DNA of 54,965 nucleotides, the filler included, from Basidioascus undulatus (Eukaryota): assembly GCA_000826855.1 (NCBI GenBank). It is 3 parts of 3 records of this genome, joined end to end, with 100 filler letters (N's around TTAATTAATTAA, not from the genome) between each part and the next. Parts side by side here need not be neighbours in the genome. Positions count along the whole stretch, not along the records: positions 1 to 18,265 come from JTLS01000475.1; 2 more parts are not named here. One strand, given 5' to 3'. The stretch's first letter is position 1. Each line of letters starts with the position of its first letter. A program made the position numbers and the translations under genes. The notes under the pieces are model-generated. The model did not search any database, was not told where the DNA came from, and saw nothing but the letters and a program-made list of their open reading frames with translations. This document shows positions 1-36,720 of this stretch, one piece after another.

Positions 1-123
1 TTTCTTCATCCATCTTGCATCTTGACACCAACCCTGCTGGTAGTCCCCGCTGCGGTCTGTCTTACCCAGTCAAGTCCTGACAGCCTGAGCACCGCACGCT
101 AAGACCTCTTCACCCCCACCTCC

Positions 124-782
124 CGCTTCTCGAAGCGCCTATCACCCACATTTCGATGTGCTCGCTCCTCCCAAACTCCCCTCCTGCGTCTCGACGCGTC
201 GGCCAACCCACATTTGGATGTGCTTCTTTCCGCTTCTCGAAGCTTATCTTCCCGCATTTTGATGCGTCATTTTCACCCTCGGGGCACTGCTCTCTTATAC
301 CCGCTTTTTGAAGCGTCTCTCCCGCTCCTCGGAGTGTCCTTTTCCGCTTTTCGAAGCTTCAAGTCCCCCATTTCAAATGCGTCCGCTTCAGCTTTTCGGA
401 GATCTCCATTACCCACAGGCTTTCGAAGCACCTCTCCCCGCTCTCCGCAGCGTTTCTGTCTGGCTTTCGGAGGCTTCTTCGGCCCGCATTTTGTTTGCAT
501 CTTATCCATCCTTCGGGACATTCCACATTTTCATGCTTTTCGAAGCTTCTAACCCCGCATGTCCATGCGTCCCTCTTCGGCGTCTCGATGCTACCTCAAC
601 TCTCCCCGCATCTCGATGCGTCTCTCCGCCAGCATCCCCGAACGCGTTTCCTTCGAGCTTTCGAACTTCCAGCTGTCCCGCTTCTCAAAGCGACCTACGC
701 ATTTCGATGCCCTCCGTCTCCCTGCATCTCGATGCCTACTCGTCCCACTTCTCGTGGTGTCTCTTTCCCGCATTTCGAGGCG
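124..782 (+). repeat. Degenerate tandem array of about 25 mini-hairpins (4-5 bp stem, mostly YTCG tetraloop, pyrimidine-rich spacers, ~20-30 nt period)
   Basis: Units read directly: CGCTT-CTCG-AAGCG (124-137), CACAT-TTCG-ATGTG (147-160), GCGT-CTCG-ACGC (186-197), CACAT-TTGG-ATGTG (209-222), GCTT-CTCG-AAGC (232-243), CGCAT-TTTG-ATGCG (253-266), CGCTT-TTTG-AAGCG (302-315), CGCTC-CTCG-GAGTG (323-336), GCTT-TTCG-AAGC (346-357, 535-546), CGCAT-GTCC-ATGCG (556-569), CGCAT-CTCG-ATGCG (607-620), CGCTT-CTCA-AAGCG (679-692), GCAT-TTCG-ATGC (699-710), GCAT-CTCG-ATGC (724-735), plus weaker copies. Confidence 0.85.
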
Positions 783-1653
783 TTAGTAGCCACTGGGGAG
801 TTGCCGTGGCGGGATCAGTGGGAGGAGCACCGATCGTGCAGGAGGCGTCCGAATGTCTATGAACCCAGGGGGTCTGGCCGTCTTAGGTTGATCGGCTTTC
901 GCGACGTTCTCGCAGTGCCTGTTGCTTCAGCGAAGAGCCAATTTCTGGGACACACTCTTCGCAACCGCCAGCGCTTGCGCCGGTCGGGGTAGAGTTTTCT
1001 TGCCTGGGGGATGTATACCGAGACTATGGTCTGATTTTTGGAAGAGACTGAGACTATCGCCAAACTCTCTATCGCGTCGACGTCGGCATTGGCAGCATTC
1101 CCCTGGGCACGCTCGCATTCTCTGCATCAGAGTCTGTCCTACCTTTCGGCACTGAGATCAGAACGTAGCCCTTGCCTCCTCAGCACGCTATCGTTCAACA
1201 CTGACCGCCGCAATCGCTCTTCTGCACAGCTGCGTCCCTCTTCTCTCTCTCGCTTGCTCAGACAGCACTGACTGAATATTCAGGCATTGCCTTTCCAGGT
1301 ACTATCGAAAAAGAAAAGACTTTGCGCAGGAAAGACCACCTCTTCTGTCTCACGTACTCTACTGCGCGTTTGCCCCGTGCAACAGGCCCTCGCCTCAACG
1401 TGTTCTCTCACATACGTCTCGTGAACAAGGGTGTACTTTCTGCCTTCAAGAACTGCTGATCGAAGAGAAGGAACAACGAAACCGTAAGGCAGATAGCCAG
1501 CAGAGAAGGAAGGTGCAGTTTGTGAGAACCCAGCTCACGTTCTCACGCTAACGCGGGTGTACAGCCCGACATGACAAACAGGACAGATGTGGGAGGATGT
1601 TCAGGGATCAGGACTGACAGTGCATCATGCAAGGGGGTATGAAGAATAATGCA

Positions 1654-2897
1654 TCACTCGTCCTCCTCTTCCAACTCATCCGACTCATCAGAGACCTCCA
1701 TCTCTTCGTCTTCTAGCTTCTGTTGTTCTGGCCGGGGCTTCGGAGTCTCCAAGGTCTCCTCCGAGTCCGCTGAACCCCCGCGCTCGCTCGAGATGGGCGC
1801 GAGCCCGAGCGGACGCTTGCTGACATGTACCCCGAGCGGCGCCGACACGCGTAGTCGAGGCGGGTTCTCGTAAGCCGGGGCGGGCGCGAAGGTGACGAGA
1901 GAGGAGATGGGTAGCGCCATGCGCTGAGGAGGGGATGGTGAACGGGTGTAGGCCGAGGATTCGGAGGGGGATACGGAGGAAGAGCGAGACAAGGGAGGGC
2001 TGTGCGAGGTGGAACTGGTGGAAGCGGTGGACGACATGGACGAGCTTTCAAGGGACGACCTCGAGTGTACCACGTCATGATGTTTGCTACAGGCGCAAGA
2101 GGGTCAATGACTGAACGAACCTCGGTCAAAGATGGAGAAGATGTACTTGAGGATTTGCTTAGCGCCGCCTCTTGATCGCCCGCAGGCGGTCAAGCGGTCG
2201 TACGCTTGTGCTCGAGTGATGTTGCCGACCTTAAAGTCGAACACGGTCTGACGGTCCTCGTCTGTGACGGGATGGCCGTTGCGTCCTCGACCCTTGCCGT
2301 GCAGGTATCGGACGCCTGCAGGGATGGAGGGAGGTGAGAAGCAGCTCATGCGACTTGGTAATACCCAGATGAACGCACCAGGATACTTGTGCTGTGGGAA
2401 ATGCCCGGGTCAGCACGAGAACGAGGAGCGGAATAGGCATCTTGGTACTTGGATGGATCCCCAAACGGCTTGGGCGTCTGGACGAAGGCAGGTCGTTAGG
2501 AGAGTGATCATGATGAATGGGCTCACTGTCAAATGGCTAACTTACAGGTCGACTTTACACCCGCAGCCTCGCCGAGCTCTGCCCACGTTGCGCCTGCACT
2601 GATTCGTGCGGCCAAATCATCGTGCGAGAGCCTAAAGACAGTGCGGCGAGCGTCGAGGTCGGCGCCGGACCGACCAGCTTTGTGCGCGGCTTCGAGTTTG
2701 GCGAGCTGTGAAGAGAATGCAGACTGAGCAAGTGTTTGAACCCTGTGGGACTGATTGGAGAAACATACTCGGTTGGTGAGTTGTCGTTTTGCGCCGATGT
2801 TGTATTTGGCCTGAATGTGCTTGAGGTCGAGCGGCTGGCCCGTGAGCTCGCAGTGGTTGAGCTCGAGCTCCAGTAACGCATAGGTGATGGTAGACAT
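1654..2897 (-). CDS. Hypothetical protein (~320 aa, multi-exon) with an HTH-like segment and a Ser-rich/acidic C-terminal tail
   Basis: ATG at 2897 (MSTITYALLE). GT-AG introns (e.g. 2724-2768, donor at 2545) join ORF pieces into one frame: ...GATWAELGEAAGVKSTYAQAVWGSIQHKYPGVRYLHGKGRG...QILNKHHDVVHSRSSLES...EEEDE*. Confidence 0.6.
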
Positions 2898-5800
2898 TTG
2901 GATCACGTTGGTGTGGGCGTCGGTGGGGTGATGAGAGGAGGTAGAGGGATAGTACGGAGAGGGAGCAGCAGTTGAAGGAAACATTCGGCAAGTGCGCAGA
3001 GCGAGCGTCTCGCTGTCGTCGTTTATAGCACAGCACGGCTTGGACGCCCGCACAGAGTTGATGAGCGCTATGGGATATGTCAAAGGAGACTGTGAAGGGA
3101 GCAAAGCCGTGAACCAGGAATAAACAGCGAGATGTGGGACGTTAAAGTGTCTGAAAGAGGAGCGATTCAAAGATAGAATCAGGTGGGGAGGGGAGAGCTG
3201 GGCTTTTATGCGCTGCGCACTCCGCAGTTGGCCAGCCCATTTTAGGGCACACCACTCGAAGCGTTCTTTATGTGGAATTGATCTTATCCTGACAGCGCCT
3301 CAGCCGGCGGAGAGGCTAGGAAGACTACGTATCTTTTATATTCGGCTCGCTCGCAGCCGCACGCGATGCCGGTCAGGCACGGCCTCCGCGACAGCTATAA
3401 ATGGGCTCACTCAGACGGCCGAGCTCGTTAACGCAGACGACTTGACCAACGCGAAGTCGTCATTTTTTCATTACGGCAGCATCCCTCATGAAGCGTCCTC
3501 TCAGATGGCTGCTTGAGGGTCATCGCATACAGGTCATCGTCCTTGCGCCGCAGTTGTCGAAACACGCAACAAGCATTGAAACTGTTGGGAGCGCAGCCGC
3601 TGCACTCGGCTGACCTCCTTTGCTGCGCTTAACCTTTGCGGGGCAGCGCAGTGGCCCTTTTCCGTCGTGAAATATGAACGTCAAAACGAACGACGCTGTA
3701 TGCTGGCTTACGTCTTTGGGCGTTACGGAGCCGTCGGAGACCACGGTATACACTGCGACCGCTTCTCAGAAGTCGCAGGAAAAAATTCTTTCGGCAAGGA
3801 ATCATTTTAATGTCAATAGAGACGTTTGATGATGAGCACAGGCCTTCTGGAAGCTGGAGTGATCTGTTCATGATGCCGATGCACCGCCTGACAATGCATC
3901 AAATCCGAGCATTGGATGTTTGATATTTGCTCTATTGCTCATGAAGAACGTATCTCGGCCGATGAAAGGTTCGTTATTACCCCTGAGAGTGGATTGATCA
4001 CCGATTGTCACCGACGGGTCTGCCAGGTCCACACTGCACGGCCGCTTGCGTTCACGGAATTGACCATTGTGCCGGAGAATGGTGGGAGTTCTTCATGTTC
4101 TGGGGCTGACTTCATTAACACAAATGATATTTTACAAGAAGTACGGTCAAAACATTGTCTGATACCGTGGTGCATAAGAAGCGAGGCAAGGTCGAGGAGA
4201 CTTGCGTTGGCACGAAGCCTTGCGAATGATCTCCATTATCTTGGGACAGCTTACTGGTACTTTTTCAAGTTATTTTACTCAAAACAAAGCCCATTGCTAA
4301 AGAACATATATGGCCTTCGTTCGTATCGAAGCTCCTGTTTTTGGATAATCAGACTGAGTCTACTTATCAGTTGTTTTCACACATATGAAGCTGACGGGCA
4401 AGCGGCTACGCGGCAAGCTGGAACAGCCAGCACCGAGTGACCGTCACCGAGGTGCGATTTCTGGATGTTTTTGCCCTTTGGTATTCATTTCTCGAGAGCT
4501 TTGGGCGTTTTCGGAGCTGTCCCACACTACATTCAGCCAAGTACACATCAGAAAATTAGGCAAGGTCGAGGACGTAGGTCCAGGCCTGCGTCAGCAGGCG
4601 GAGCAGTTACTTATGGGACATGCATAAGCTTCATGTCCTTGAGCAAATTCAATGATTAAACGCAAGTGTCCCTATCATTGAACCTATGTCCAAGTCTGGT
4701 ACCAGTAACGGGCGGGTACATTGTGTCGTCTTCTCATCCAGCCGGCGCCGGTGCGAAGAAGACAAATGAGAAATCCCACTTCTTCGGTGGTTTTATGAGA
4801 TGGTTTAAGTGTCTTACTTTCTGTACTTTACAGAGACTCCTCGGTGAGTCTGAAAGGCGTACGACTCTATGCAGGCATTGCGCCCGCGCGCGAATGGCGG
4901 GGAAACGGCCACACACCAGGTCAAGATGGCGTGAATGATTGGGACAAGGCACCTACAATGCCTAGATGCATATTATTTTTTTCAGAGCAATATCGACCAG
5001 CTGCCGTCCAAATTTTGAGTGTGACAGGTGTCGAGAGAGTCGAGACGGCTGCAGCTTCCAAATGACATGTGAAACTGGATGCGTCTCTATCGGCCTTATG
5101 AATTTGAAGCACTTGCTAGCTGAACCCAGTCGTCTTCTCGTTGCGTGCAAGTACTGTAACCCCGCCTCATATGAGGTTCGGAATGGAAAAATCGCAATAT
5201 TTATATGCAGTGTGTGCATGAAATATTGAGAAGCAACTCTTCAGAACGAAGACTGCAAGAGCAGCAGGAGATGAAAGCATTTCGGCGCACACTGTCAACA
5301 GCCGCTCCGACGTACTTGCGCGCCGCCTGCAGCTTGACCCGAACACTCATCCGCAAAAGCTCCCAAGCCATTGCTCGCGCTTTCTACATTTATTGCGGCT
5401 CCAGCCGCCAAAAACACGCACATTAACATCGAATCACGATTTGAGCGACCACGACACCTCGACGACTCTACGGCCAGACTGCTCAGGGCCGGAACGCGAC
5501 TTCGCAGGGCCGACCGCTGTAGCTTCGAGAAGGAGGGCTTGCCGAAGGACTGGAGATTGGGCTTATCGCTTAGGTGAATCTTATTTTTCCTGGATCTCAG
5601 CGATGAGAGGTTTGTGTGGATTGGGGATGGAAAAGGCAGCAGAAAATCTGACATCTCCATGTTCTGGCGCTTCGTCTCCCACCAACAGACTTGACACAGC
5701 GCTGGGTAGACCCACACCGCATTGTCTGTCCGCCCGTTCACGACGGAGGATTTTGGATAGTTACAGCACGTCTCGAGGTCTGATCAATTCTCTTCATCTG

Positions 5801-5905
5801 CCCTGATGGTCGCAGGTCTGATCTTGGGCTGGGCATTGCCGGCGCTCTCAGGGAAAGAGAGTGCGAACACGCTTCGTGGATTCTGTTCGCTAGACGCTAC
5901 GCGCG

Positions 5906-8900
5906 ATGGGCAAGCCGAAGAAGCGCTCGCTGAAGCCGGTCAACCGCGGCTTCGCGACGACCTCGGGTGGGTTTTCCCACTTCTCCAGCCTCCATCTTGG
6001 TGCTCACAGCGCAGCTACGGCTCACGCCCGCAGTCGCCAAGAAGGTCATCCCCGCGGAGGAACCACCCGCGGATGCGCCGGGCGGTGCGTCTGAGATTGC
6101 GAGCGACCCGCCCGCTCCGAGCGAGCAGCAGCAGGCGCCCAGTATGTCCGGTGCGGTCGCTGCGAATGGAACGGGCGCGCCAGGCGCGGCGGGCGACGGG
6201 GCGGCAGCGGGCGACTTTGACGAGGCCGCCGTAGAGGAGCACCAGCTCCAGGCTCTCGTGGACAACTTGTGGCCCAAGATCCAGAAGGACGTGGAGCGCA
6301 CAGTCAAGGTGCGTTTGCCTGACTCGACTCGGTGCTATCGGTCGTGGAGTGGGGTTTGGGAGCAGGACGGCTGACCCGTCGAGGTGGGCGGGCTGTGGCA
6401 TTTTCAGGCGGTCGATTTCGACCGTCGTCTGGCCAAGACGTTCCCGTCCCTCAAGGTGCCCGCGAAGTACCGCGAGAGGCTGCACGAGCTCGCACTGGAG
6501 TCGGAGGCGGCTGAGGGTCCGTCTTCTCCGTTACTTCTCGAATCCATTGGTTGCGTTTGATCGTCATCCGCATTTGCTCTCAAAACAGCGCCCAAGCCCA
6601 CGCCGTCCATCTTCTACGAGCCCGAGGAGAAGGTCCTGCTCAAGGTCGGGACGACGTTCGGCGTCCTGAAGAGGCTAGGCTTTACTCCTGAGCGCGCCGA
6701 GGAGTGCCTGCGCGCGATTGCAAGCATCGAGCTCGAGGACGCGCTCAGCTGGGTGCGTTCAGTCTCGGGAGGACAGGCGAGAAACGCGAGCTTGGCGGGC
6801 TGACTCATTTCCGGTGCGAACAGCTTGCTCTGCATTGCCCGGAGGAGGAGCTGTGGAGCATGGCGGAACCTGTGCCTGCTGGTGAGTCGTCCAGCGATCT
6901 CCGGAGAAAAATCTCAGTTGTGTTGATTATTGGTTTTCAACAGAATCTTCGACGCCGACGTTCGTGCCGAACGCAACGCCCGCGCGCACCTCCGGGAGCT
7001 CTACTCCAGGCCGGCGCTCTCCCGAGCTGCCGCTCACGTCCAAGCCTCGCATTCCGCCCCCGTCGCCGCGTGCTCCGCCGACGCCCTCGGCACCGACCGC
7101 AGACGACAAGGCGCGCGTGCTCGCGCGCGCGGCAGCGCAGCTCACGGAGGAGGACGAGGAGAACCCGACGGCCGCGCACGTGCGCTTGAGCATCCAGCTC
7201 AGCGACTTGCAGCGCTCGACGGGCACCGTGCAGGGCCGGAAGGGCAAGAAGGTCGGCGGCAAGGCGGCCAAGGCTGAGAGCGAGGAGGTCAAGGCGCTTA
7301 GGGAGGCTTTGAAGAAGCTCGAGGCAATGTACCTGTTCGACCGGAAGGAGGCGGGTGAGTCTCTGCAGCTCTGGGTATAGGCCTCGGCCACTTGACCAAA
7401 GTGCTCATTGTTGGCGCACTGGGTTTACAGATGCTATGTTCAAGGCCGAGCGAGCTCGACTCGATGACATCGCGCTCCAGGAGCGCCTGAACAAGGCGCC
7501 CATCCCGCCGAAGTCAGATGGCTCGGACGCCCCCGCTGCAAGCGCGAACGGCACTCCGACGCCCTCCGCTCCCTCCTCCGCACCGTCCACGCCTCCCGCC
7601 GCGCCCGCCGCGGAGCTGCCGTCCATCTCGGTCCCCTCCACCCCCGCCACAACGTCCGAGAACGGCGACGACTCGATATTCGGCAACCTCCTCGACGAGA
7701 TGCCGTCGACACTGACCGCCGAGGATGGCACAAACATCACGGTGCGGGACATGCCCTTGCCGAAGCACTTCAACGCGCGGCATGCGCCCAAGGCGCTTCT
7801 CGAGGAGTCCGTCCTCCGCGTCGACAAGTACGCGCTCGTCCAGCTCCGCATCATCTCGGGCGAGAGCCGCGCCGCGGGCGCCGCGGGCGCCGTCAGCTGG
7901 GGCGCGCCGGGCATGAAGGGCCGCTACGCGGACGAGTACGAGATGCGCGAGATCGCGTGCTACGACAACGCCCAGGCGCTCAACTACGTCGCGACCGTCC
8001 TCCTCCACGCGCTCTGGAGCCGCGGACACGCGGGCAGCCAGTTCAAGCCTGCCCAGCTGCCGCCCGTCTTCCGCGACCTCTGGGACGAGCTCGAGGCCCG
8101 GAGAAAGGAGGATGAGGACACGCGGCATCGCGCGGAGATCCAGCGGCTGCGGAGCATCGTCGAGGGCCGGATGAAGGCGTTCAAGCCTAAGGTAGGCGCC
8201 ATTCACAGGGTTCGGGCCTTGCGTGCCGCAATACTAGAGCGCTGACGGGGGGATGCGAGCAGGCCGGCCTGAAAGCGAAGCCTGCTCCTGGCGTGGACGG
8301 CGTCGTCGAGGAGGGCCCGACGATTCAGCAGCGCGACGAGGTCTACTATGAGCATCTGCGCGAGGACTTTATCGTGCGGATGCAGTCGCCTGCGTATCAG
8401 GACATGCTGGTGCGTCTGCCTTTCTCGGTTCATGGATGCAGTCTTTGATCTGACTTGGAGCACCCCATCCTGTGCAGCGCCAACGCAACACCCTCCCCAT
8501 CGCCTCCTACCGCCAAGAGATCCTCGACACGCTCGACAAGTCGCAGATCATTGTGCTATCAGGCGAGACGGGCTGGTACGTCGTGCCTCGCCCCGCAACG
8601 TGTTTCCCGGCTTCCTCGAATGCGCTGACACTGCCGTGCACTCGCTTTACAGCGGCAAGTCTACCCAACTGCCCGCGTTCATCCTCGAGGACAGCCTCCT
8701 CCGCGGCAAACACTGCAAGATCTACTGTACCGAGCCCCGCCGTATCTCGGCCATCTCCCTCGGTCAACGTGTTTCCGCCGAGCTGGGCGAGCCCCCTGGC
8801 GCGGTCGGCACGAATGGCTCCCTCGTCGGTTACGCGATCAGGCTCGAAAGCCAGATCAGCCGGACGACTAGGCTGGTGCGTGTCCTCTCGCGGGGCGGTC

Positions 8901-11900
8901 GAGTTTAATCAACAGGCCGCTGATGACCGGTGGATGTGCACAGGTCTACGCTACGAACGGTATTGCGCTGCGCATGCTCGAGGCCGGCAGCGGCGCGGAC
9001 GGCAAATCGTCTGGCTTTGACGAGCTTACGCACAGTCAGTAATTTCGCTCAGGCCTTCTCGCTACGCGTGCGTGCAGGGCTGAGGACTGGTGCTTTTCCA
9101 GTCATCATCGACGAGGTTCACGAGCGCTCGATCGAGTCTGACTTCCTGCTCATTGTTCTCAAGTCGCTCTTGGAGCAGCGGAAGGACCTGAAGTGCGTGT
9201 CTCCGGCCGTTAGGCGGAATGACAAGGAGCGTTGGTGCTTATTGCGTGGGTTCCAAAACACAGGATCGTCCTCATGAGCGCCACGATCGAGTCGGAAAAG
9301 TTGTCGGCTTACTTCGGCGGGTGCCCCATTCTGAGCGTGCCCGGCCGGACGTTCCCCGTCGACGTCCGCTTCCTCGAGGACGCTGTCGAGTTCAGCCGCT
9401 ACTACATCACCGAGGACTCGCCTTATGCTCGTCGTCGTGCGTCAATCCTTTCGGCAACCCGCTTTTCAACATCTGACGGGTATGCTGATTACTCTGGTGC
9501 ATGCAGGCGACAACAAGCTGGCGGCGAAGGGCAAGGTCAACCTCAACAACTGGAGCGAGGACGCTGCGGTCGCCGCGGACGAAGAGGAGACGGGCGAACA
9601 GCGCACCGATTCTGCCCTCCCGGTCGCGCAGGCGCGGACGTACAGCGCGCAGACGATCAAGACGCTCGATCTCCTCGACGAGTACCTCATCCCTTACGAT
9701 CTCATCGTCCGCACGTTGGAACAAGTGCGGCTTCTACCGCTTTGAGTATGTGTCGCAAGCGCGTCGCGGGCCGCTGATGTTTTCTTCTGGGCTGCAGCTT
9801 TGCAGCGACCCTGGCTACCAGGCGTACTCGAGCGCCACGCTCGTGTTCATGAGCGTTCGTAGCTGATTCTTTGGCTTCGACCCTTCCGATGGGCCAGTGT
9901 TGACCACACCCAATTTCCGGACGCAGGGTCTCGCCGAGATTCGTCGACTCAACGACATGCTGCAAGAGCACCCGATGTTCGGATCCCCCGATTTCCGGAT
10001 CTACCCGCTTCACTCTACCATCGCGTCCGATCAGCAGAGTAAGTCTGCAGTCAAAGACGGCAGGAGACATGTGACTGATCGTTATGCTCTCCTCCGCAGG
10101 CGCTGTCTTCGACGTACCACCTCCCGGCATTCGCAAGGTGCGTTTGAATGTTCGAGCGCCTCTGTCAAAAGGTCAAGCACAACTGACAAACAGTGCGTCA
10201 CAGATCGTCATCGCGACCAACATGTACGAATTGTCGGATGTATCGCGGCTGCGAGCGTAGCTGACGTCTCGTCCACAGCGCCGAGACCGGTATCACCATC
10301 CCCGATATCACTTGCGCGTCCTCATTGCGAAAGCTTGGGCGACCTAGAAGCTCACAGCCCACTATTCAGGTGTCATCGATACCGGCCGTCATCGCGAGAT
10401 GCGCTTCGACGAGAAGAGGCAGATCAGCCGTCTCGTTGAGTGCTTTATTGCGAAGAGGTCCGACGCGTTACCACAAGCTGGCCGTGTTTGATTCTGACTT
10501 TGCCTCCCCCGCGTGCGTAGCAATGCCAAGCAGCGCCGTGGTCGCGCCGGTCGTGTCCAGGAGGGCCTCTGCTTCCATCTGTTCTCGCGTGACCGTTTTG
10601 AGTCGAGGGTAATCTAGCGCTTTGTTCCGATGCTCGAGGCAGTCGCTCATTTCCTTCCTCGCAGATGGCCGACCACCCACTGCCGGAGATGATGCGTCTG
10701 TCGCTGCAAGACCTTGCGCTTCGCATCAAGGCGAGTACACTCGCTTCGCAACAAACGGCTGATGATCACTAACCGTCATTTAATTGCAGATCATGAAAGT
10801 CAAGCTCGGGTTGACGATCGAAGACGTGCTTACTCGCGCACTCGACCCGCCGCTTTCTGTCAACATTCAACGCGCGGTCGCTTCGCTCGTCGAGGTCCGT
10901 CTCTCGCATCGGCGCCCAATCTTATCTTGACCAAGCGCGCTGACGTTTGTCATCGTCTTTGCAGGTCAAGGCACTTACGCCCAGCGAGGAGATCACCGCG
11001 ATGGGCCGCCTGCTCTCGCGTCTGCCTGTCGACGTCCACCTCGGCAAATTCCTCCTCATCTCCGTGCTTCTCGGCTGCCTCGACTCTGCGCTCACCATCG
11101 CAGCTACGCTCAACTCCAAGAGTCCGTTCGTCACGCCGTTCGGTCTTGAGCGCGAGGCGGACAAAGCGAAGGCATCGTTCAACTCTGGTGAGCTTACGAT
11201 CTACACGGCTAAGGATATCGTTTCATGGAGACTGACCGATCCTCCCAGGCAACTCGGACTTCCTGACTATCGCGAACGCCTTCGCCAGCTGGCGCCGCGC
11301 CTCATCGAACGGCCAAAACTTTGTTCGCAAGTTCTGTCGACAGAACTTCCTCAGTCAGCAGGTTGGTTTCTGTTTTGTTCACGGGAGACTTCTTCTTTCC
11401 AGTCCGAAACTGACAGTGGTTCGACAGAACCTGCAACAAATCGAGGAGCTTCGGGTCCAGCTCTTTTCGTACCTCATCGACTCGTCCTTCGTCATCGTCT
11501 CGCCCGAGGAGATGAGGGAAATCAACCGGTGCGCATTCAAGCTGATTTGCCGGAAAGTGTACTCTTTGCTGACCCGCTGGCTGTAGTGCTCGCTTCTCGC
11601 GCAGCGGCCGCGGTCCTACTCGGTTCGTCAATGTCCCGGCTGACCTCAACCGGCATTCCGAGGAACCAGCTATCCTGCATGCGGCGCTCGCAGCCGGCCT
11701 GTTCCCGAAGGTCCTCTCCGTCGACCCGACAAGCTGGCAGCTGCGCACGATCTCCAACAACGCCTCTGCCGCAGTCCACCCCTCCTCGCCCAACTTCGGG
11801 ACGAAGTGCGTACTCTGACTTTTACGACGTCGGGAAGCGCAACACTGAACCAGTATCGTCGTTTAGGTGGTCCGAGCTCGGAACGACGTTCTTGGGCTAC

Positions 11901-12274
11901 TTCACACTGCTCCAGTCGAAGAAGCTTTACGCGCACGAGATCGCGCCGCTGGACGAGATGGCTCTCTTGCTTCTCTGTGGTGAGCTGGACACGAAGGTGC
12001 GTATCGTCTCGTCCGGTTTGCTGTACACTCTAGCTGATTGTCTTATCACCGGCAGCTCGCTTCGGACACGGTCTCGGTCCACAACAAGATCCGCTTCACT
12101 GCCGATCCTCGCGCCGCCATGGGCCTGAAGTACCTCCGCGAAGGGGTGCACGGCGCCCTGAACGGCATGATGAAAGGCAAGGGCTGGACGCCGCAGCAGC
12201 GGAAGGCGTTCGACATCGGTCTGGAGCTTCTCAAGGGGGCGGGCAATGCTGGGAGCGGCGTTGAGGCGCGGTAG
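5906..12274 (+). CDS. DHX29: ATP-dependent DEAH-box RNA helicase, DHX29/DHX57-like (many exons)
   Basis: Starts MGKPKKRSLKPVNRGFATTS. Spliced motifs: SGETGCGKSTQLP (I), CTEPRRISA (Ia), VGYAIRLE, IIIDEVHERS (II, DEVH), LMSAT (III), VPGRTFPV, PLHS, ATNIAETGITIPDITCVIDTG (V), QRRGRAGRV (VI), then HA2 region (LSRLPVDVHLGK) and OB-fold region (VHPSSPNF). Stop TAG at 12272-12274. DHX29 versus DHX57 assignment is by recollection of the family, not by search. Confidence 0.93.
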
Positions 12275-13251
12275 CCAGTCCGCGGGACGTGCGCTTACCG
12301 CATGCACAATTTTCGCATTCTGTGTCTGCGCGGATGCCCGCTGAGAACCCTCAAGAGTCATAGGGTCGCGTCTGAAACTGCAGGTTGACCATAGAGACTT
12401 GCCTCGCTAGTTCGGCCGCTGAGTACGTTGCCGTGGACTCGCATTCAAGTTGCGCAAAGCTCGGGAGGTTGACGGCGGCCTGCCGATCGATAGAGGCTCC
12501 GTGAGCTTCAAGGAGCTTCACAAAGCTCGGATAGATATGGATTGCACCGCTATTAGACAGAGACACGAAATCGGGAGTCGGCGGGATCGGAGAAAGTCAC
12601 GCTGACTTGGAAGATGGAATTCATTGCTGTGACAGTAGGCAGCAGCCGTGGCTGTTCAAGAACAAGATGGTTAGGACATAATTGTGGAGATCTCATGTCT
12701 GCACTGTAAAGTTTGAAACTTGTTTCCGTCGATCCGCTGGCCAGGCTTTGCCAGCCTCACGCTGAAATCTGAGTAGCAGTAGCTGATGCGTGGCCAGCGG
12801 GGCCGAATTGCCCTCATGGTAGCTTGGAAGAACGGACAACGTAAACTTTATTGATTTCTAAGTATACAAAAAGAGGAGTGGACGCTCGAGAGGAGTGTTG
12901 GGGTGAGGTGGGGAAGCAAATGGCGTATTCATGCGCGTAAGGTGCAGGTGAAATGCAGTTCGCGGCTGAGTGTGAGGGGTATGAGGATGAGAACTAGGGT
13001 ATGTAATAGGGGCTATGATATGTTTGCATATGAACATTAGAAATTGATGTGTGCCGATGTGTGAGATTGTGCTCGGGGGTACGTGAAGTATGCAACAGTA
13101 GGTCAGAGAGGGTATCATGCTTTGTGTCATAAGACTGGATATAGAGAAGGGAAAATATTAAAGACTAATTTGTAATGGAAGCTTGCGAAATGTACGGAGC
13201 CGATTTAGAAAAGTCTGACCGGGAACGGCGAGCAGCAGCTGGTGCGGAACT

Positions 13252-13955
13252 TCAAGCAGCGAACCACGCGACCTGTACTCTTCCTTGTCAGCCTAATCTA
13301 CTGCAGCAGAAGGGGATAGTTTGAATAAGACGAATGTTGACGGACGAGGTTGCATGGCTGAGGTTATGCGATGCCACCGAAACGTGAGGGGAGTGCGAAC
13401 TGACAGGGAAGAGAGAAGGAGGACGTACTACGAGACCCCACTCCTTGGTGCCAAGCTGCGAGCACAGTTGTAAGCAACGACCTATTTAACAGCTAGTATA
13501 GTTTTTGGGGAACCGTACATGGTATCCTGTCCACCATCTATGATGTGGAATGATGTTGATCACCAATTCTGTTATGCCTGATTGTTTCTCTGGACGACAC
13601 GAAAGCACGTACCCACTGACAGGATCATCAGCAATGCCAATGATATCACCGGCCCGGAAGGCTACATAAGTGATGTCAGTATAGTAATATCTCATGAAGC
13701 ATGAGAAATACCGCACCCAGGTCGCCTCGTCGCTCGGGCCACCAATCTTGCTGTAGCATAGACAGAAAAAGCTGCAGTCAGATACAGCTTTCCGGAACCA
13801 TTCTATTACAAGTACTTACAGTGGCTTGCACGAAGTACATGAGGCGGGTTCTAGTCTTGGCCATACTGGGATTTCTTGGGAACGGTTGGGAAGGCAAAGA
13901 AGGTTGGGTAGCGGATCTTCTGGTGACTGAAACAGGTGAAGATAAACTAAAGTGT
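13252..13955 (-). CDS. SH3-domain protein, 3' exons (5' end uncertain, probably further exons to ~14230)
   Basis: Small exons splice to YFVQAT|QDWWPERRGDLA|FRAGDIIGIADDPVSG|WWTGYH|LGTKEWGLV|PCNL|VAWFAA*, matching the SH3 pattern A-x-x-D...DL-x-F-x-x-GD-I-I...WW-x-G...G-L-V-P-x-N-x-V. Confidence 0.75.
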
Positions 13956-15057
13956 CGGACGTCGATTCAGGTCCCTTTTATAGGACACCAGGATGATTCA
14001 GCTGTGCATTCAGGACGATGGAGGCAGTCCGCTTGCGCCGTCAGCCGAAGACTCACTGATGCATCGGCGGAGGCCGTGCCAAAGCTGCCAAGATGCATAC
14101 ACGGGCACGGTCATCAGTGATGTTCATGATGGGAGTCGCACAGCATCAATTTTTGCGTAACAGAATATGTACGTTGCAGACACGGCGATCGATGTCGACA
14201 GTCCACGGCGAGCACAGTTCACGGTGAGCTATTTCACGGATCAGCACAGCCTCGGTGGATATGCTCTGATGCTCGTTCGTTGCCTTGTGCCCTCCCCTCC
14301 TCGAACTTTGACTCGGCATGGAATGTAGGTACTTTGAATATAAGACTTCTTGTGTATCCTTGCTCTACGAAGATGATGGAATTATTGCGAGTCAGCCGTT
14401 GTTGAGTCATGGCAACGCTGGCTGCCAGCCTAGACTATCGGGTCTTGGACACATTGAGAGAACCATAAAGTGTGATGACAGTTCAAAACTCTGATGAGTT
14501 CAATGTCTCTCAAGGTGGACTCTGTTGGTTGGCCCGGAGCAAGTCCAACAAGGCTGCGTGAAGCCCTGAGAAGCCGCCATTCACTGCTCAAGGTAGAGTC
14601 CCTTTTCACCAAGCTATGTGAGTTTTTCAGAGTATACCCCCGGCTACATCTCGGACTACATCTTGGAAACAATTTTCTTGTGGTGTGCAGCAGCCAGGCG
14701 GTCAGGTAGTCGCAGCGCCACGCTTGGTGCTGTACACTTATCCTCCACAGAGACGAATTATCCAACATGGACCTTGAAAGTCAACTTGCTCGGAGCACAG
14801 GTCTGGGTTCTGTACAAGAAATTCTGGCCTGAGAATTATTGGCAGTCAAGGTTTCCACAGTACAGCAAGCGAACAAATGTATCCATCGCCGGTAAACTTC
14901 GCGGATTTTGATTTCCCGGCTCCCTCTCACTTTCCAAGATCATCCATCTTGCTCCCTAGAGAGTCTCACAATGTCCCTCAAATATTCTAGTCTTTCAAGC
15001 AGCAGCAGCATATCTGAGTCCGTTTAAGTAGTCCGGCGCCCGATCTCAGACGCCGAA

Positions 15058-16330
15058 TTAGACATCCTCAAGTCGTTCGTGAAAAGCCTCGAGGACACCA
15101 GCTCGCAATTCTGCTGCAGTGGAAACCTCCAGTTTCCGCGTGGGAGTACTCCGAACCTGTTCTAAAAGCGCTCCGAGTCCGACGAAAGCGCCGCCGTCGC
15201 GACTTTCTGGCTGAGCCAGTCCGCGCTCGCCTTCGAGGCGACCATGCCCTCGCCCCACGGCAAGAACGGCCAGGCGGTATACGACGAGTCTTACCGCCTC
15301 GCTCGCGAGCTTACGGCCGACCGAATTGCCATCTCGGCGAGCTTGCTCTTCGCCATCGTGCGGCGGTCAAGCCCGATCCTGGACGCCGTTGCTGCGTTCA
15401 CTGCGGGAGAAGGTGAGGGCGTCGAGGCGGTGCTCTACAAGCTCAATGTCTACGGATCGGGTGGGATCTTTAACTCCCACAAGTACAAATCCAAGGGCGA
15501 GAACCACCTGAGAACGCTGATTGTCGGTCTCCCGTCGAGCCATCAAGGGGGCGCCCTCGTAGTGCGCCATCTGGGCAAGGAGATCGCTTTTGACTGGTCT
15601 GACGACGGATTGTCGAAGGGGTGCACTTCCGAAGGGACTGTGCCCTAGGCTTTTCTGTTCTCCGATGTGGAGCACGAGGTCCTTCCCGTCCAGTGCGGCT
15701 ACCGCCTCCCTCGCGTTCGACATCTTCTCGACGACGGCGGCTGCCAACCCTCGGCGCCCTCGATGCGAGCCCAGAGCCTCCGCTTCCCCTCGATGGACCT
15801 GCAGGTGGCACTCGACAGACCCACCTTCCTCCTAACGGAGGGCGCCTCGCCTTCGCGTTGCTGCACCAGTACCACGTCACAACGAAACCGTTCGCGCAGT
15901 CCTTCGCGCGGCTAGCTCAAGGGCGCGGACGCCTCGCTTTACTGCGGCCTTCTAGCCGCTGGTCTTGAGACCCGTAGTCAAAGCGGTGTTTCCTCTGGAG
16001 AAGATCGACTTTCACGTGGTCGATGTTGACCCGTCGCCTGGCCGGACGACGGGTATGGCCCAGACCACGGGCGGCGCGGACTGGTGTACATTGCCCAAAA
16101 GTTCCGACTGGAGGAGACCGATTGGCAGGTTCAGACGGACCAGGAGGGCCCTCTGGAATGATCCAGGAGGAGCTGGGAACAAAATCGAAAAGAACATCGT
16201 CTGTGCGTACTGCATTCTTACGCGGTAACTGAGGAGGCTGATGGGACGGCCTGAACAGGGTGCCGCCGACAAAGCGAAAAGAACATGAGCATCGCCCGGC
16301 ACTACCTCGCTTATGGGAACGCGGCCATTC
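15058..16330 (+). pseudogene. 2OG-Fe(II) oxygenase (prolyl-4-hydroxylase-like fungal family) pseudogene
   Basis: LYKLNVYGSGGIFNSHKY...TLIVGLPSSHQGGALVVRH...*AFLFSDVEHEVLPVQCGYR. The HxD iron motif reads HKY, there is an in-frame TAG at 15646-15648 where Trp is expected, and a frameshift follows GYR. A later remnant YLAYGN is at ~16300. Confidence 0.85.
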
Positions 16331-16661
16331 GAGCCCGTAGAACTGGAGGGTCCCCTAGCAGCCCTCTTTCGGGCGTGCCGGAGCGAGGAGCCCGAGGGTA
16401 GGCCGACTCTCGAGGAGATCATCCCTGCCCTCGAGTCAATAAGACTTCTGTAGTACGGCGTCTACCCTGGCCCGCGTTAGCTGCCAGATTTTGAAAATTA
16501 TCCTACAACACATGACTTGGGATTCACCCTCCTCATCCTAGATTCTATCAACTTCCTTCGCGTTCTCTCCGACCTGCCTGATAGCGTAGCAGAGCTCGCA
16601 AGGGTAGCCAGTAAGTTCTCAGAAGGACTCCTTACTTTCCCTGGCTGGGAGTGAGAGTCTC

Positions 16662-16698
16662 ATCCTCAAGCTCAGGCTCGTCCTCAAGCTCAGGCTCA
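16662..16698. repeat. 18-bp tandem duplication
   Basis: TCCTCAAGCTCAGGCTCG followed by TCCTCAAGCTCAGGCTCA. Confidence 0.8.
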
Positions 16699-18265
16699 TG
16701 GTGACCGGAGTCGGTAATACCCGCAAGTGCGAGGACTTCGGCGCTAGCAACGAGGCGACGGCTGGCACCGGTGCTCCGCACCCTGGTTGGGAGCCTCAGG
16801 ACCCTTCACATCCGAGGTACCCGTAAGGAGCGCAGAGTTGTGGGTGAGGCTGAAGGTCCAGTCATCCTTGTTAGTGCCAGACACGGGCTCGCCAGTGCAC
16901 TTCACCCAGATCTCGCTGAGAATGGCACAGACCAGACTCTTCCCGTCCACGTTAACGAGCACGTCGCGGAGCTTGATGTTATACACATCACCCTGCGAGT
17001 TGATGGTGCTCCAGATGCACTCGGTGGGGATCGAGCCCTGACGAGGGGCGATCCTCCAGAACGGTACGATTCCCGTTAAACCCGAGCTGCCCCAGGAGGT
17101 TGCGTCCCCTGAGGCTCGCCAACCTCCTCTAGACCGGATCACCGATACAAGGCGATCTCAACCGCCCCGCTCACGATCTCGAGTCGGACCTTTGTACGTA
17201 GAACGACATCTGTGTGTCGGAAGTCCCCTGGCGTTCCCTGCAGTCCTTCTAGGGAGACACAAGGCGCCGGATTTCGAAGCCCGCTAAGTCGTCGGTCGGG
17301 CCTTCCGATGGTACGTGGGGCAGTTTCCACAATGCAGGCCTGACTCGCCTGATGTCCGCCGACGCGCTCTGCACTCGTTCCTAGGAGGGAACACGCGCCG
17401 GGACCCCCCTAAGTGAAGGCTTGAAGAGTCGTCGGAGAAGAGCTGGAAGATCGTCGAGGGGCGGGAGGCCTCGATAGACGCATCACCTCTTCTTCCACAT
17501 ACCTGACAAGGATTCGACGATGTTACTGAGAGTGGTCTTTTGAGTTAATCGGGTAAAGCTACCCCTTCAGCTCTGGAAGATTTCCAGCTCAGGATCCACT
17601 GCGTAGCGACCGACCACCAGGCCACGGCGGACTGGAAGGCAGTCTGCCTGGGCAGCCTTCATCTGCTGCCGGACTTCTATACCGCTTGGATATTTAAGCC
17701 TGTATAGCTTATCAGAGCAGTGTTTAGACCTCTTATAAGCTGCTGTTCTGGTGCTAAGCCACGCGCGGCCCTGCCCGTGAGCCTGGGAAGCCGCTGCGCT
17801 TTGGGGTGTCTTCCGTCTTGCCCACTGCATAGTGTACGCCGCTGACTTGGGTGGTGCCTGAAATTCGAGAATACAAACCTGATGTTCTATTTATTCACTC
17901 TGTGACCGCTTGGACACCTAAGGGGACCAACGCGCAGAGATAAGCAGCGAGGCACGCTTACATGCGAGCGAGCACATCCCATTGCCCTTCAACACTCTTA
18001 CCCACCTTTTCCCGCATCCAACTCTCACACCACAACCAGTACTCCAGCCGAGCCAGCACACCCACACCCAACAGCCCCGCAACCAAACCCGCTCGCTTTC
18101 GCACCGCACGGACAGCGTGCATGCATGCATTCCTTTCTTCTCCTTCTCCCGTCATCTCCCTATCCCCTTCCCATCCCCGCACATCCCCACCCTCGTCCCC
18201 CTTCGATTCAATCACTCCCGCTGAGCTGCGGGTGACCGCATCGAAGAGCTTGAACTTTCCTCTTT

Positions 18266-18365
18266 NNNNNNNNNNNNNNNNNNNNNNNNNNNNNNNNNNN
18301 NNNNNNNNNTTAATTAATTAANNNNNNNNNNNNNNNNNNNNNNNNNNNNNNNNNNNNNNNNNNNN
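18266..18365. other. Artificial assembly gap/linker
   Basis: 44 N + TTAATTAATTAA (stop codons in all six frames) + 44 N = 100 bp. Confidence 0.99.
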
Positions 18366-25058: not shown

Positions 25059-25150
25059 TCTCCGGTGGCGCAATTGGCTAGCGCGTCCGACTGTTACTAC
25101 TATTGATAGTGGTGATCGGGAGGTTGTGAGTTCGAGTCTCACCTGGAGAG
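25059..25150 (+). tRNA. trnN-GUU: tRNA-Asn (anticodon GTT) with an 18-nt intron
   Basis: Acceptor stem TCTCCGG/CTGGAGA plus discriminator G, D arm GCGC..GCGC, anticodon stem TCCGA/TCGGG with GTT at 25093-25095, intron 25097-25114 at position 37/38, T arm GTGAG-TTCGAGT-CTCAC. Confidence 0.95.
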
Positions 25151-28543: not shown

Positions 28544-29629
28544 GACTGCTGATGGGGTGAAATAGAGATTGAAAGGAAGTATGAAAGAAATCGGTGGTGC
28601 TGGTGGATCAAAACGTGGATGGAAACGCCCGCCCCCGCCCGAGGGGAGGAAACCGTAAGATGAGCCGGAAACGCAACCAATTTGTACAGCTCCGTGGCTG
28701 TCATGCTCGTGAGATTGCTACAGCCACCGCCCAATTCCACCAATAACTCAATCAAGAATTTAAAAGAGCTGACCTGAATGTCTAGGGAAAATTCCAACCA
28801 TAATGCGGACCTTCGTGGTTCCGTGTCGGAACGCTTTGAATGGCCACACGCTCTTCGATCTCCATGCAGCATTCGACTCTCGAAGTGGTCCTTCATTGTC
28901 CTGGTAGACATCATAGTTATTAACTGAGTTTACCAATTCTGCTTAAGCACTCGATTCTGCGGGTGTCCTTGTGGGGCGTACATACAAAGATGTCGAAGCC
29001 GCAGCTGGCGGTCGTGCACTGGCATGAGCCAATCGTTCTCTAGAGAGTCTGACGCAAAAAGTAGTTCGGAGGGCCATTTTTGGCAGATGGGCTTTGTACT
29101 GGTAAGAAGCGCGACTGACTAACATGCTGAAGTTTCGTTTCGTGAGGCGTCAGAGCTTGGAGAAACCCAGCGCGGCACGAAGGTCTCAACAGTAAGGCAG
29201 CGAGATGGTCACATCGCTAGAAGAGTTCGTTGGAAGAGCCTGCTTCGGTCCTATGCTGCATTTCCAGTCACATCCTTCCCCAGCCAAGCCTTCTCACGTC
29301 CATACGGCAAGGGAAGCACTTACCTACCGAGCCTGGTGACTGTTCTGATATTGTTTCTTTCTTGCTCAAGCTCTCCCCTTGCTCGTCAACATACCATTAC
29401 CATACAATTGCCCAGCCCAGTAGAAGTTTGAATAAAAAAAGATCCCCAGCGCTTTGGGCATATATCTCCGCCTCCTCGTGTGCGCCAAAGACGCATCGAT
29501 ATCCGAAACATGCCATGAGAAGCACGGAGCCCCTGTTGTTGCTTGAATTTGAACCATGACCACTCCTATCAGCCTTCTATATCCCTGTTCGCTACAATAC
29601 TCACCTATAATACCCTGCATCCACAAAAT

Positions 29630-29716
29630 ATGCATGTTCCCGAGCCCCCATTCGACGTCCAGTAGCTCATCGTCGAGCAAGTCGCTCACTCGCGACATTC
29701 CTCGCCTGCGGCCGCA
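29630..29716 (+). pseudogene. 87-bp 5' fragment of an F-box-like gene (inverted copy of 35614-35700)
   Basis: MHVPEPPFDVQ*LIVEQVAHSRHSSPAAA; about 9 mismatches in 87 nt versus the reverse complement of 35614-35700. Confidence 0.75.
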
Positions 29717-31881: not shown

Positions 31882-32068
31882 ATGGGTACTGGGTGGTGGG
31901 AATTATTATACCCTTGTTTTGAGTTGCTTGGGGATAGGTGCTTGCGGGGACAGCTGCAAGGGCGGAGGTATCGCTGGCCGGCTCCTTTGAGCGTGGCCCA
32001 CTATCCTCATTCTCTATCGCTGTTCGCTGAGCTACACGTAGGCCTCCTCAACGCTTCACAGACAAAGT

Positions 32069-32145
32069 ATGTCTGATCTTGAGTTCTCATCCGACGTCCT
32101 GCGGCTCATCGTCGAGCAAGTCGCTCGCGAGCGGCACATCTTTCT
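32069..32145 (+). pseudogene. 5' fragment of an F-box-like gene (third copy of the 29630/35700 family)
   Basis: MSDLEFSSDVLRLIVEQVARERH; shares GACGTCCTGCGGCTCATCGTCGAGCAAGTCGCTCGC with the other two copies. Confidence 0.65.
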
Positions 32146-34749: not shown

Positions 34750-35700
34750 CTCACGTGTCCTCCATGTCCCAAAGTGTGCCCTCAACCATCCGGTCTCGAA
34801 GCCATATCCAGGAATCCTTCTTCGGAAGCACCACAGTTACTACCACCGCCGCGTGCCGCATGTCTTCCCTCAAGAAACGATTGAAATCGATCCCGAAGGC
34901 GTCTATAGACTTCGGCGCACACATCCGGCCGGAACTTGATAACGAGTTTATTGAGCGCGGGAGCAGGCTTGACAAAGTATGAACACTTGGTTATGAATGG
35001 GAAGCCGGCAGAGACTTCAGCTGCGAAAGCGATATGCGAGAGGTGAGGTATGCCGAGTGTGTACTCAGCAGGGCCTATGTCAGCCAGTGTAACCGAGCTC
35101 AACACCAGGCGGGTGACGCTGGATATTCGAAGTGCGCCACGCCAGTGGACCAGTGGAAGCGGAAAGGAAGAAGGGAAGTACAACCTCTCTGACACTGGGC
35201 GGCAGTTCGAGGGGATAACAGTCGCCCGGCAGAGGCGGGTGAGCTTTCCAAACCTCTTTTTGGGCGACTCCGTGCAGAGACATGCTTGTGAATTTTTTGC
35301 CATGCTGTCCCGGCGCCTTGCCGTAGCGTGTCGAAGCAAAGAGCGTGTAGAACATTATGCTCAGTGTGGTGACCGGGCTCTCTTGGGGGAACACGGATGT
35401 CTCGGGAAGGTGGAGCGAATGTGTAGCCCCAAGAAGGCGCGGGTTCTGTTGAATGGCGCGGAGGAGCGTGGAAAAGCGGTGCGCGCTTGCGTCCCGGGAG
35501 TTGCCTCAGGTTGAGTTCCTCAGATCGATCGAAGCGTAGAGCACCGTTGAGGAGATCTTGTTGACTGAAAGCGATACCAAGCAGAGAGAGGTTAGAGTCA
35601 GAGTGGCGTCCTTTGCGGCCGCAGGCGAGGAATGTCGCGAGCGAGCGACTTGCTCGAGGATGAGCCGCAGGGCGTCGAATGGGAGCTCAGGAACAGGCAT
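34750..35700 (-). pseudogene. F-box-like/LRR-type gene with premature stop
   Basis: MPVPELPFDALRLILEQVARSRH...LTSLCLVSLSVNKISSTVLYASIDL then in-frame TGA (35506-35508), continuing FSTLLRAIQQNPRLLGATHSLHL and LRR-like VTRLVL / HLSHIAF / ALNKLVI segments. 3' limit approximate. Confidence 0.7.
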
Positions 35701-36620
35701 CCTCTTCAGCGAGTGTGAAGTGGGTCGTTCTGGATGAGCTATGTCAAGGAACTGTGAAAAGGTGGAGAGGAAGGCGGCGGATGGGTGGTCGTGGTTCAAG
35801 TTAAGAGGCAACGAGAGAGAGCGCTATGCGCCTTTCTCGATAGACCGGAATGCGCCTCTCCATTCGCGATTAGTTCGCCGGTTATGTATGTACCTATATG
35901 CGGAAAGCAGGCCGACACGTATGAAAAAGGCAATAGCTCGAACAGCTAGACTACAACACCCACCGAGCAACAGAAGAGAAGACTTCCGTCGTGAAGCACT
36001 GCAGTCTCGAAGAGCACATGGGTCGGAAGCAATATCGAATCGACATAGGGCTCGGATACCTGTGCAGACCTGAGAATGGAAAGATATCTCAGCTGTCTGA
36101 TCATTCAAGCCCTGGCGAAAGCTCAGAGCATCCGGATTGCGATTCCGGTTCAGTCGCACATAGCGGGGGTACATGAGGCGGAAGGGGACATGCTGCACCC
36201 ACTGTGATCGAAGGTCGCATTCAGCAGGGAAAGCGACGTTGTCGGGGTGCTTATGGAAGCAGGGATAAATCGAACGGGGCATGAACGCGAGCACCGACGA
36301 AGATATGAACATCAGTGGTGAGCATACGAGACGGAGGCGTAACATGAGTCTGAACACAGGCGGTGAGGTCTATGAGCGACTAGCGAGCTCTCGGTGCGTG
36401 CTGCAAAGTGCATGTGATGCGATAACGAGCGACAAAAACACGAAATCCAGTCTCCCGTCCTGCTCTCCTCGAACTCAGATCAGCCTCGAACCATCCCACT
36501 AAGAGCAGGCTACGACACACCTCTACAACATCCGAAGCTTCTTCGGCCTCGTCCCGCCCCTGACCAAGCGCGTGTGGTCGCTGATGACGCGCATGCGTTC
36601 CCTCACCTCCCTCCCCTCGC

Positions 36621-36720
36621 NNNNNNNNNNNNNNNNNNNNNNNNNNNNNNNNNNNNNNNNNNNNTTAATTAATTAANNNNNNNNNNNNNNNNNNNNNNNN
36701 NNNNNNNNNNNNNNNNNNNN
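36621..36720. other. Artificial assembly gap/linker
   Basis: 44 N + TTAATTAATTAA + 44 N, identical to the first linker. Confidence 0.99.

Follow-up and report, generated by a model that had tools for sequence, protein, structure and literature searches.

Positions 124-782 hold an array of short hairpins, block B of a dispersed element in the genome of Basidioascus undulatus. This element, which has no name, is low-copy, decayed, and at least 3 kb long. We regard the array as a real and unusual feature, a structured repeat array in a mobile-like element. According to the reading that we favor, with a probability of roughly 0.5, the element was once mobile and is now extinct, and folding of its + strand was maintained to provide a multivalent array of binding sites; the chances that this strand was RNA or single-stranded DNA are about even. 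The window, meaning the whole stretch of 54,965 nucleotides that was analysed, begins with contig G000:C2409 (positions 1-18265) of a 32.1 Mb assembly in 2,992 contigs, and the array begins 124 bases from the contig end. N spacers with a short AT linker occupy 18266-18365 and 36621-36720, and neighbourhoods that run across the three joined contigs are not real. The array and its surroundings contain the following features.

1-82, + strand: 3' end of a long terminal repeat (LTR) from a family of ~320 bp whose ends read TG...CA; it inserted separately, a short way upstream of the array
89-123, + strand: remnant of the spacer between blocks A and B, 83% identical over 52 bp to the copy on C1083
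124-782, + strand: hairpin block B, 22 profile-defined units with a 5-bp stem, a YTCG-type loop and a pyrimidine linker
509-518, + strand: a single C(TTCG)G mini-hairpin with a 3-bp stem, kept in C2635 and with an altered loop in C1083
789-1003, + strand: non-repetitive 3' block, common to C2635 (84%) and C1574 (76%), with a weak coding hint
1015-1247, + strand: additional 3' block, in which 13 nt are directly repeated (1017-1029 and 1047-1059); its true end is undefined
1654-2895, - strand: spliced host gene outside the element, the nearest gene to the array

Block B had a single polarity throughout, with a loop of 4 nt and a pitch of mostly 22-23 nt. The unit profile was built from sequence alone with no pairing criterion, and its background was 0.7-0.8 per kb. 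It defined 22 units, and the approximately 25 mini-hairpins counted in an earlier, sequence-only reading were reached when weaker units (509-518 and ~652-667) were included. That reading had named five stem types (GCTT/AAGC, GCAT/ATGC, ACAT/ATGT, GCGT/ACGC, and GCTC/GAGT), all of which were found in the array by hairpin listing and profile units, and the G-T pairs that it saw in hairpins 323-336 and 579-592 were confirmed in the hairpin listing. The first kb contained 13 stems of at least 4 bp with a YTYG loop, whereas the remaining 54 kb contained 0-2 per kb on either strand. When the window was scanned with a two-unit covariance model, matches with E<0.01 fell only within 120-785 (among the 10 of 15 matches listed, all on the + strand). 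The array at 124-782 was unreported by Tandem Repeats Finder, and Rfam returned tRNAs only, both for the whole window at the gathering score and for four loci at E<=1.

The loops of the 22 window units were CTCG in 8, TTCG in 7, and other sequences in 7, so that the predominance of CTCG and TTCG and the agreement with the YNMG motif, both claimed earlier, hold for 15 units. This YUCG content is the point of likeness to cUUCGg/YNMG tetraloops, whose extra stability requires a C-G closing pair. In contrast, the loop-closing pair here was T-A in 18/22 window units and C-G in 1/22 (T-A in 90/107 units overall), the computed energy of isolated units was about -2 to -4 kcal/mol with one unit at 0, and TTCG gained no computed bonus over TTTG/UUUG. 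Because of the U-A closing pairs and the missing energy bonus, the argument from exceptionally stable loops fails. The perfect C(UUCG)G hairpin described at 509-518 was present, but with a stem of only 3 bp.

Pieces of the element were found on at least seven contigs (C2409, C1083, C2635, C623, C1574, C2825, and C2923), four of which carried arrays; these counts come from homology searches of the genome contigs and give a lower bound for the copy number. The copies were 70-85% identical, were broken off at different points, and were truncated in every case. The identity of the homologous DNA to the window was 82% for C1083, 73-75% for C2635, 73% for C623, and 76% for both C1574 and C2825. In total, 107 units were present in six arrays on four contigs (22, 25+16, 14+21, and 9), with a pitch of 22-23 nt throughout. 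An exact 16-letter pattern occurred 10 times in the genome, with 8 occurrences in the four array contigs, and its reversed control gave none. The two-unit covariance model, applied to 38 loci including most LTR loci, gave clustered matches only in L006, L007, and L008. The genome search yielded no additional 5' or far-3' copies. Metagenome contigs contained no match to one exact two-hairpin pattern, the only DNA pattern scanned, and no blastn match was obtained in phages.

The copies sit among unrelated neighbours: a tRNA synthetase and an enolase-family gene for C2635, an RRM gene for C623, and a tRNA for C1083. This argues against a unique lncRNA or host 3' UTR, one of the possibilities raised from the sequence, while the dispersal of differently cut homologous pieces over at least seven contigs supports another, membership in a mobile-like element. 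The tRNA gene near the C1083 array (L006 1-81, +) lies ~230 bp from the array's end; like the one at window 25059-25150 (+), it was called by Rfam and not by ARAGORN, and both probably contain introns.

Pairing was evaluated in 93 of the 107 units, with 14 weak or out-of-register units left out. In these, 90% of 460 cells were paired, 68 cells were changed on both sides, and the covariation score was 0.473. None of 500 shuffles reached the observed pairing or covariation score, and slid controls gave at most 56% pairing and a score of at most 0.154. Because shuffles ignore relatedness, neutral amplification was simulated on coalescent trees from a perfect ancestor, with and without five-fold CpG decay, and matched to the 21% of non-consensus letters. 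The mean simulated pairing was ~0.5, compared with 84% Watson-Crick pairing observed over all 107 units. Among 7,924 matched neutral runs, 16 reached the pairing level, 28 reached seven compensated types, and none reached both, for a simulated process that excludes template switching and for units picked by a data-learned profile, which favors near-consensus units. Seven distinct perfect inner stem types occurred among the 62 perfect units of the 107, and two or three ancestral variants are therefore insufficient, as the earlier claim of covariation beyond simple amplification had held. All four Watson-Crick pairs were seen at pair 2. Orthologous units mostly retained their stem type between copies, indicating that most stem variation predates the split of the copies; in window unit 185, two copies showed two Watson-Crick states and the third showed the G-T intermediate.

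Substitutions in block B were counted as events among three copies, with polarity assigned by majority. Stems were changed in 33/151 columns and linkers in 86/246 (p=0.007). The changes G>A and T>C, which break the + strand pair, affected 5/75 stem sites and 21/114 linker sites (p=0.03), whereas changes giving G-U were not depleted (13/76 in stems vs 27/132 in linkers, p=0.59). The direct contrast between G-U and A-C was 13:5 (p=0.096), or 11:5 by units (p=0.21), in a series of several selection tests on few events; over all five pairs of the 107 units it was 32:23, and the 25:4 obtained by pairwise comparison counts events more than once. Between copies, pair-breaking transversions were as common as G-U changes (27 vs 25). 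Transitions in the 3' block showed no strand bias (16 C>T of 59 C and 14 G>A of 76 G). These results suggest, without proving it, that + strand pairing was under selection. Of the selection for the + strand proposed from the G-T pairs, a modest bias thus stands in the depletion of pair-breaking changes, but the direct contrast between G-U and A-C was non-significant.

Folding predictions were calculated for both strands. As RNA, 6/22 hairpins of the + strand had a predicted probability above 0.5 (local z -0.9), compared with 1/22 for the - strand, and the small number predicted to dominate as RNA counts against the favored reading and against extra-stable loops. As single-stranded DNA, 10/22 hairpins were predicted to dominate on either strand (z -3.4 and -2.4). 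Whole-region folding gave z values of -2.4 and -2.6 on the two strands; since these are similar, it picks no strand.

The covariation might also have arisen from a palindromic minisatellite in a dispersed element, the arms being re-matched by template switching before tandem duplication, with no structural selection, an explanation that we consider unlikely. This route to compensatory change was overlooked in the sequence-only reading. Template switching can create and repair perfect stems in one event (PMC8794818), and two stem types are indeed double transversions from the commonest one (T-A to A-T at pairs 1 and 2) with no G-U intermediate; the better folding of the hairpins as DNA than as RNA also fits. 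However, template switching gives no obvious reason why transitions that make A-C, and not those that make G-U, should be depleted on one strand, and G-T intermediates were present in orthologous units. Furthermore, the hairpin listing for 124-782, made with no filter on the loop, included no inverted-loop unit, and the pitch was constant in all six arrays.

On the + strand, the element consists of a shared 5' boundary, an orphan gene interrupted by intron-like gaps, block A with up to 25 units, a spacer, block B with about 22-25 units, and a 3' block. Block A was seen in C1083 and C2635, upstream of a spacer of ~350 bp. As homologous DNA flanks both sides of block B, the suggestion that the array forms the structured end of an element was not borne out. 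Homology on the 3' side extended to about 1247 in C2825 and to about 1100-1140 in C2635 and C1574, with no clear end. Two further stem-loops noticed downstream of the array are readable in the window but are not kept as drawn in the alignment with two other copies, and the few GC-rich stem-loops of the 3' block at 789-1003 lack covariation support. The 13-nt direct repeat was considered for a likeness to the En/Spm TnpA site, which the papers searched did not confirm.

In C1083, ~1.5 kb of gene-like DNA lies upstream of block A in the same sense as the array, which counts in favor of the + strand reading. A portion matches C2923 at 70% identity, the amino-acid changes being conservative and the gaps intron-like (by eye), and both copies of this orphan gene are broken by frameshifts or stops. 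In a protein search of the genome, two of three candidates matched, and these were the C1083 and C2923 copies themselves, with no intact parent. The gene pieces had no Pfam, HMMER, or atlas match, including to a Tnp2-type transposase; three HMMER matches to one piece were rejected as summed weak matches in repetitive proteins. Two other frames had no homologs, and the atlas was blank or below 0.8. The 5' boundary was common to C1083, C2923, and C2635, and C2635 passes from it directly into block A, a structure like that of an internal-deletion derivative. Two unrelated places carry this short boundary motif as well, so it may represent a promoter word instead of a terminus. No terminal inverted repeat was found in the 3' regions and 10 stretches scanned, a result that decayed copies of any class would match. 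No credible target duplication was found either, given an undefined 3' end; one 8-mer repeat at C2635 was within chance and inside the homology. Because no terminal inverted repeat, target duplication, or transposase domain was found, we infer past mobility from dispersal only.

The LTR at 1-82 was present at 31 genomic places, nearly all of which end at 82-83, and the flanks of the 30 loci examined diverge past the terminal CA. Its summed contig depth was in the thousands compared with tens in the flank, although depth is not a copy number and was taken from three DNA runs that are possibly the source of this assembly and hence not independent. At one locus, gag-like sequence follows the LTR (by eye). 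The LTR is therefore a separate abundant element inserted at the spacer, and its insertion accounts for the contig break in the window copy; the far side of the insertion was looked for and not found. The observed/expected CpG ratio was 0.06-0.33 in three LTR-element stretches (window 1-82, L047 879-1200, and L057), a strong depletion which suggests that abundant retroelements of this genome decay through methylation or a RIP-like process. In the arrays the ratio was 1.2-1.3, and in other low-copy debris it was 0.9-1.0. The undepleted CpG of the array, unlike that of the LTR elements, counts against a mobile element, although the low-copy debris is also undepleted.

Several element fragments adjoin or contain short near-identical pieces (35-65 bp) of unrelated loci, at L032 4186-4249, L008 9790-9854, and L072 1501-1535, which correspond to window 1963-2027, C147, and C677. 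On C2825, a 65-bp piece of the window's neighbour gene (1963-2027, 95%) follows the fragment, and on C623 ~50 bp of the C147 locus adjoins it. The first bases of the C623 fragment were considered as an exon of the element gene and rejected, as they match this unrelated locus on C147. These pieces may represent capture or break-repair filler, and filler explains them equally well. Fragments of a multi-copy gene family, F-box-like by eye, also lie near several element pieces in L066 (C2923), L008 (C623), and L032 (C2825), and those of C2923 and C623 are 75-82% identical.

Slightly more doubtful than template switching is the explanation that segmental duplication spread a host gene family specific to this lineage, whose transcripts would carry the arrays as long structured 3' UTRs, introns, or lncRNAs. 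It agrees with the gene-like sequence with intron-like signals, seen by eye in the orientation of the arrays both ahead of the blocks and in between, with the undepleted CpG, with the lack of any transposon hallmark, and with a 5' boundary motif that may be a promoter motif. Such a family is difficult to reconcile with two broken gene copies and no intact parent in the genome protein search, with the truncation of every copy and the LTR in the window copy, and with two fragments that abut 50-65 bp pieces of unrelated genes.

The extinct mobile element that we favor was compared with three known systems. CACTA elements (En/Spm and soybean Tgm) have rows of short inverted motifs, an intron-rich gene, and non-autonomous deletion derivatives, and their reiterated subterminal motifs, with up to 12 stem-loops, are bound by TnpA-like proteins (PMC2613891). 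In contrast, CACTA terminal repeats, a duplication of 3 bp, and a Tnp2 domain were looked for here and not found; the 5' boundary is CAC-like with no inverted partner in the 3' regions or 10 stretches, the arrays are internal and of one polarity, and their stems covary rather than keep one binding motif. It seems improbable that the array is a CACTA-type set of palindromic duplex DNA sites, bound by a dimeric protein of transposon or host, and that the hairpins are a by-product. The reiterated motifs of CACTA elements, a pitch of approximately two helical turns, and three 5' boundaries that start with a CAC-like word fit such sites, but half-site recognition needs no matched changes in the two arms, pair 2 takes all four Watson-Crick states, and the arrays are internal, with no partner terminal repeat in the 10 stretches searched.

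Helitrons such as Pleurotus HELPO1/2 resemble the element in having no terminal repeats or target duplication, carried genes of unknown origin, and a single-stranded intermediate (PMC4289320), and short pieces of unrelated genes lie beside two element fragments here. A Helitron, however, has one subterminal hairpin, a 5' TC, and a 3' CTRR, in contrast to the dozens of internal hairpins in the present element, and the 5' boundary shared by three copies fits neither Helitron end on either strand. No RepHel Pfam match occurred among the 150 of 217 frames listed around five copies or among 26 window frames. The LTR of maize Sireviruses contains a fast-evolving, palindrome-rich, hairpin-forming region inside a mobile element (PMC4728375). 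The array differs in lying outside any LTR, and its element is neither bounded by LTRs nor linked to gag/pol or other retro genes. Because it lacks the defining features tested for each, the element was filed under none of these three groups, and no account of a comparable array in fungal elements emerged from the portion of the literature covered, judged from titles and the openings of abstracts. A protein-coding repeat exon is very improbable: the arrays are crossed by long frames free of stops (in C1083, of 274 and 327 codons), but the pyrimidine-rich strand is stop-poor by composition, a pitch of 22-23 nt does not divide by 3, gaps of one base are common, no frame has a consistent synonymous excess, and no real protein match was obtained.

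Of 39 candidates compared with the gene at 1654-2895, five were related at E<=0.001, and two of these are named as Wallemia hypothetical proteins. The DNA is of fungal origin and was taken to come from a basidiomycete. This orphan basidiomycete gene is present in two copies (the second at L030 ~4197-5512); its core is ~70% identical to Wallemia hypothetical proteins, has no Pfam match, and appears by eye to contain repeated helix-turn-helix segments. A paralog on C856 has no array beside it, and a comparison of one exon with metagenome contigs found none of 590 candidate stretches related. Elsewhere in the window, a DHX29-like helicase gene with UBA and HA2 Pfam matches occupies 5900-12500 (+), and a short dispersed repeat is present in three copies that are 74-90% alike and lie in both orientations (29612-29716, 32051-32136, and 35614-35703).

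If the + strand was kept folded, the fold-back, in the 3' part of a transcript or in displaced single-stranded DNA, would have been under selection while the element was active. The hairpins may then have served as a multivalent landing strip for a protein that read the hairpin shape and the YTCG loop and not the letters of the stem. Such a protein, as we propose it, would have let the stems drift by compensatory steps while the loop, the length of the stem, and the pitch stayed fixed. The copies now present are probably dead. A distinctly speculative and rather unlikely extension of this proposal is that the element belongs to a class of eukaryotic mobile elements not yet described, or is a spliced non-coding RNA that arose from such an element; its ~45-50 structure-coded mini-hairpins, at a pitch of two helical turns, would scaffold many protein copies on a single-stranded intermediate of RNA or DNA, and the orphan gene would be their likely partner.

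Arrays of palindromes are already known from mobile elements, and the usual interpretation is that they serve as protein sites in duplex DNA or as LTR enhancers. Here, dozens of paralogous hairpins covary at a fixed pitch inside one element. The present material consists of a few probably dead copies in one poorly sampled fungal lineage. Paralogous hairpins of this kind are a natural replicate set for comparing compensatory change by selection through G-U steps with change by template switching. If an intact element exists, it may define a new structured cis-element together with an orphan protein that reads hairpin shape.
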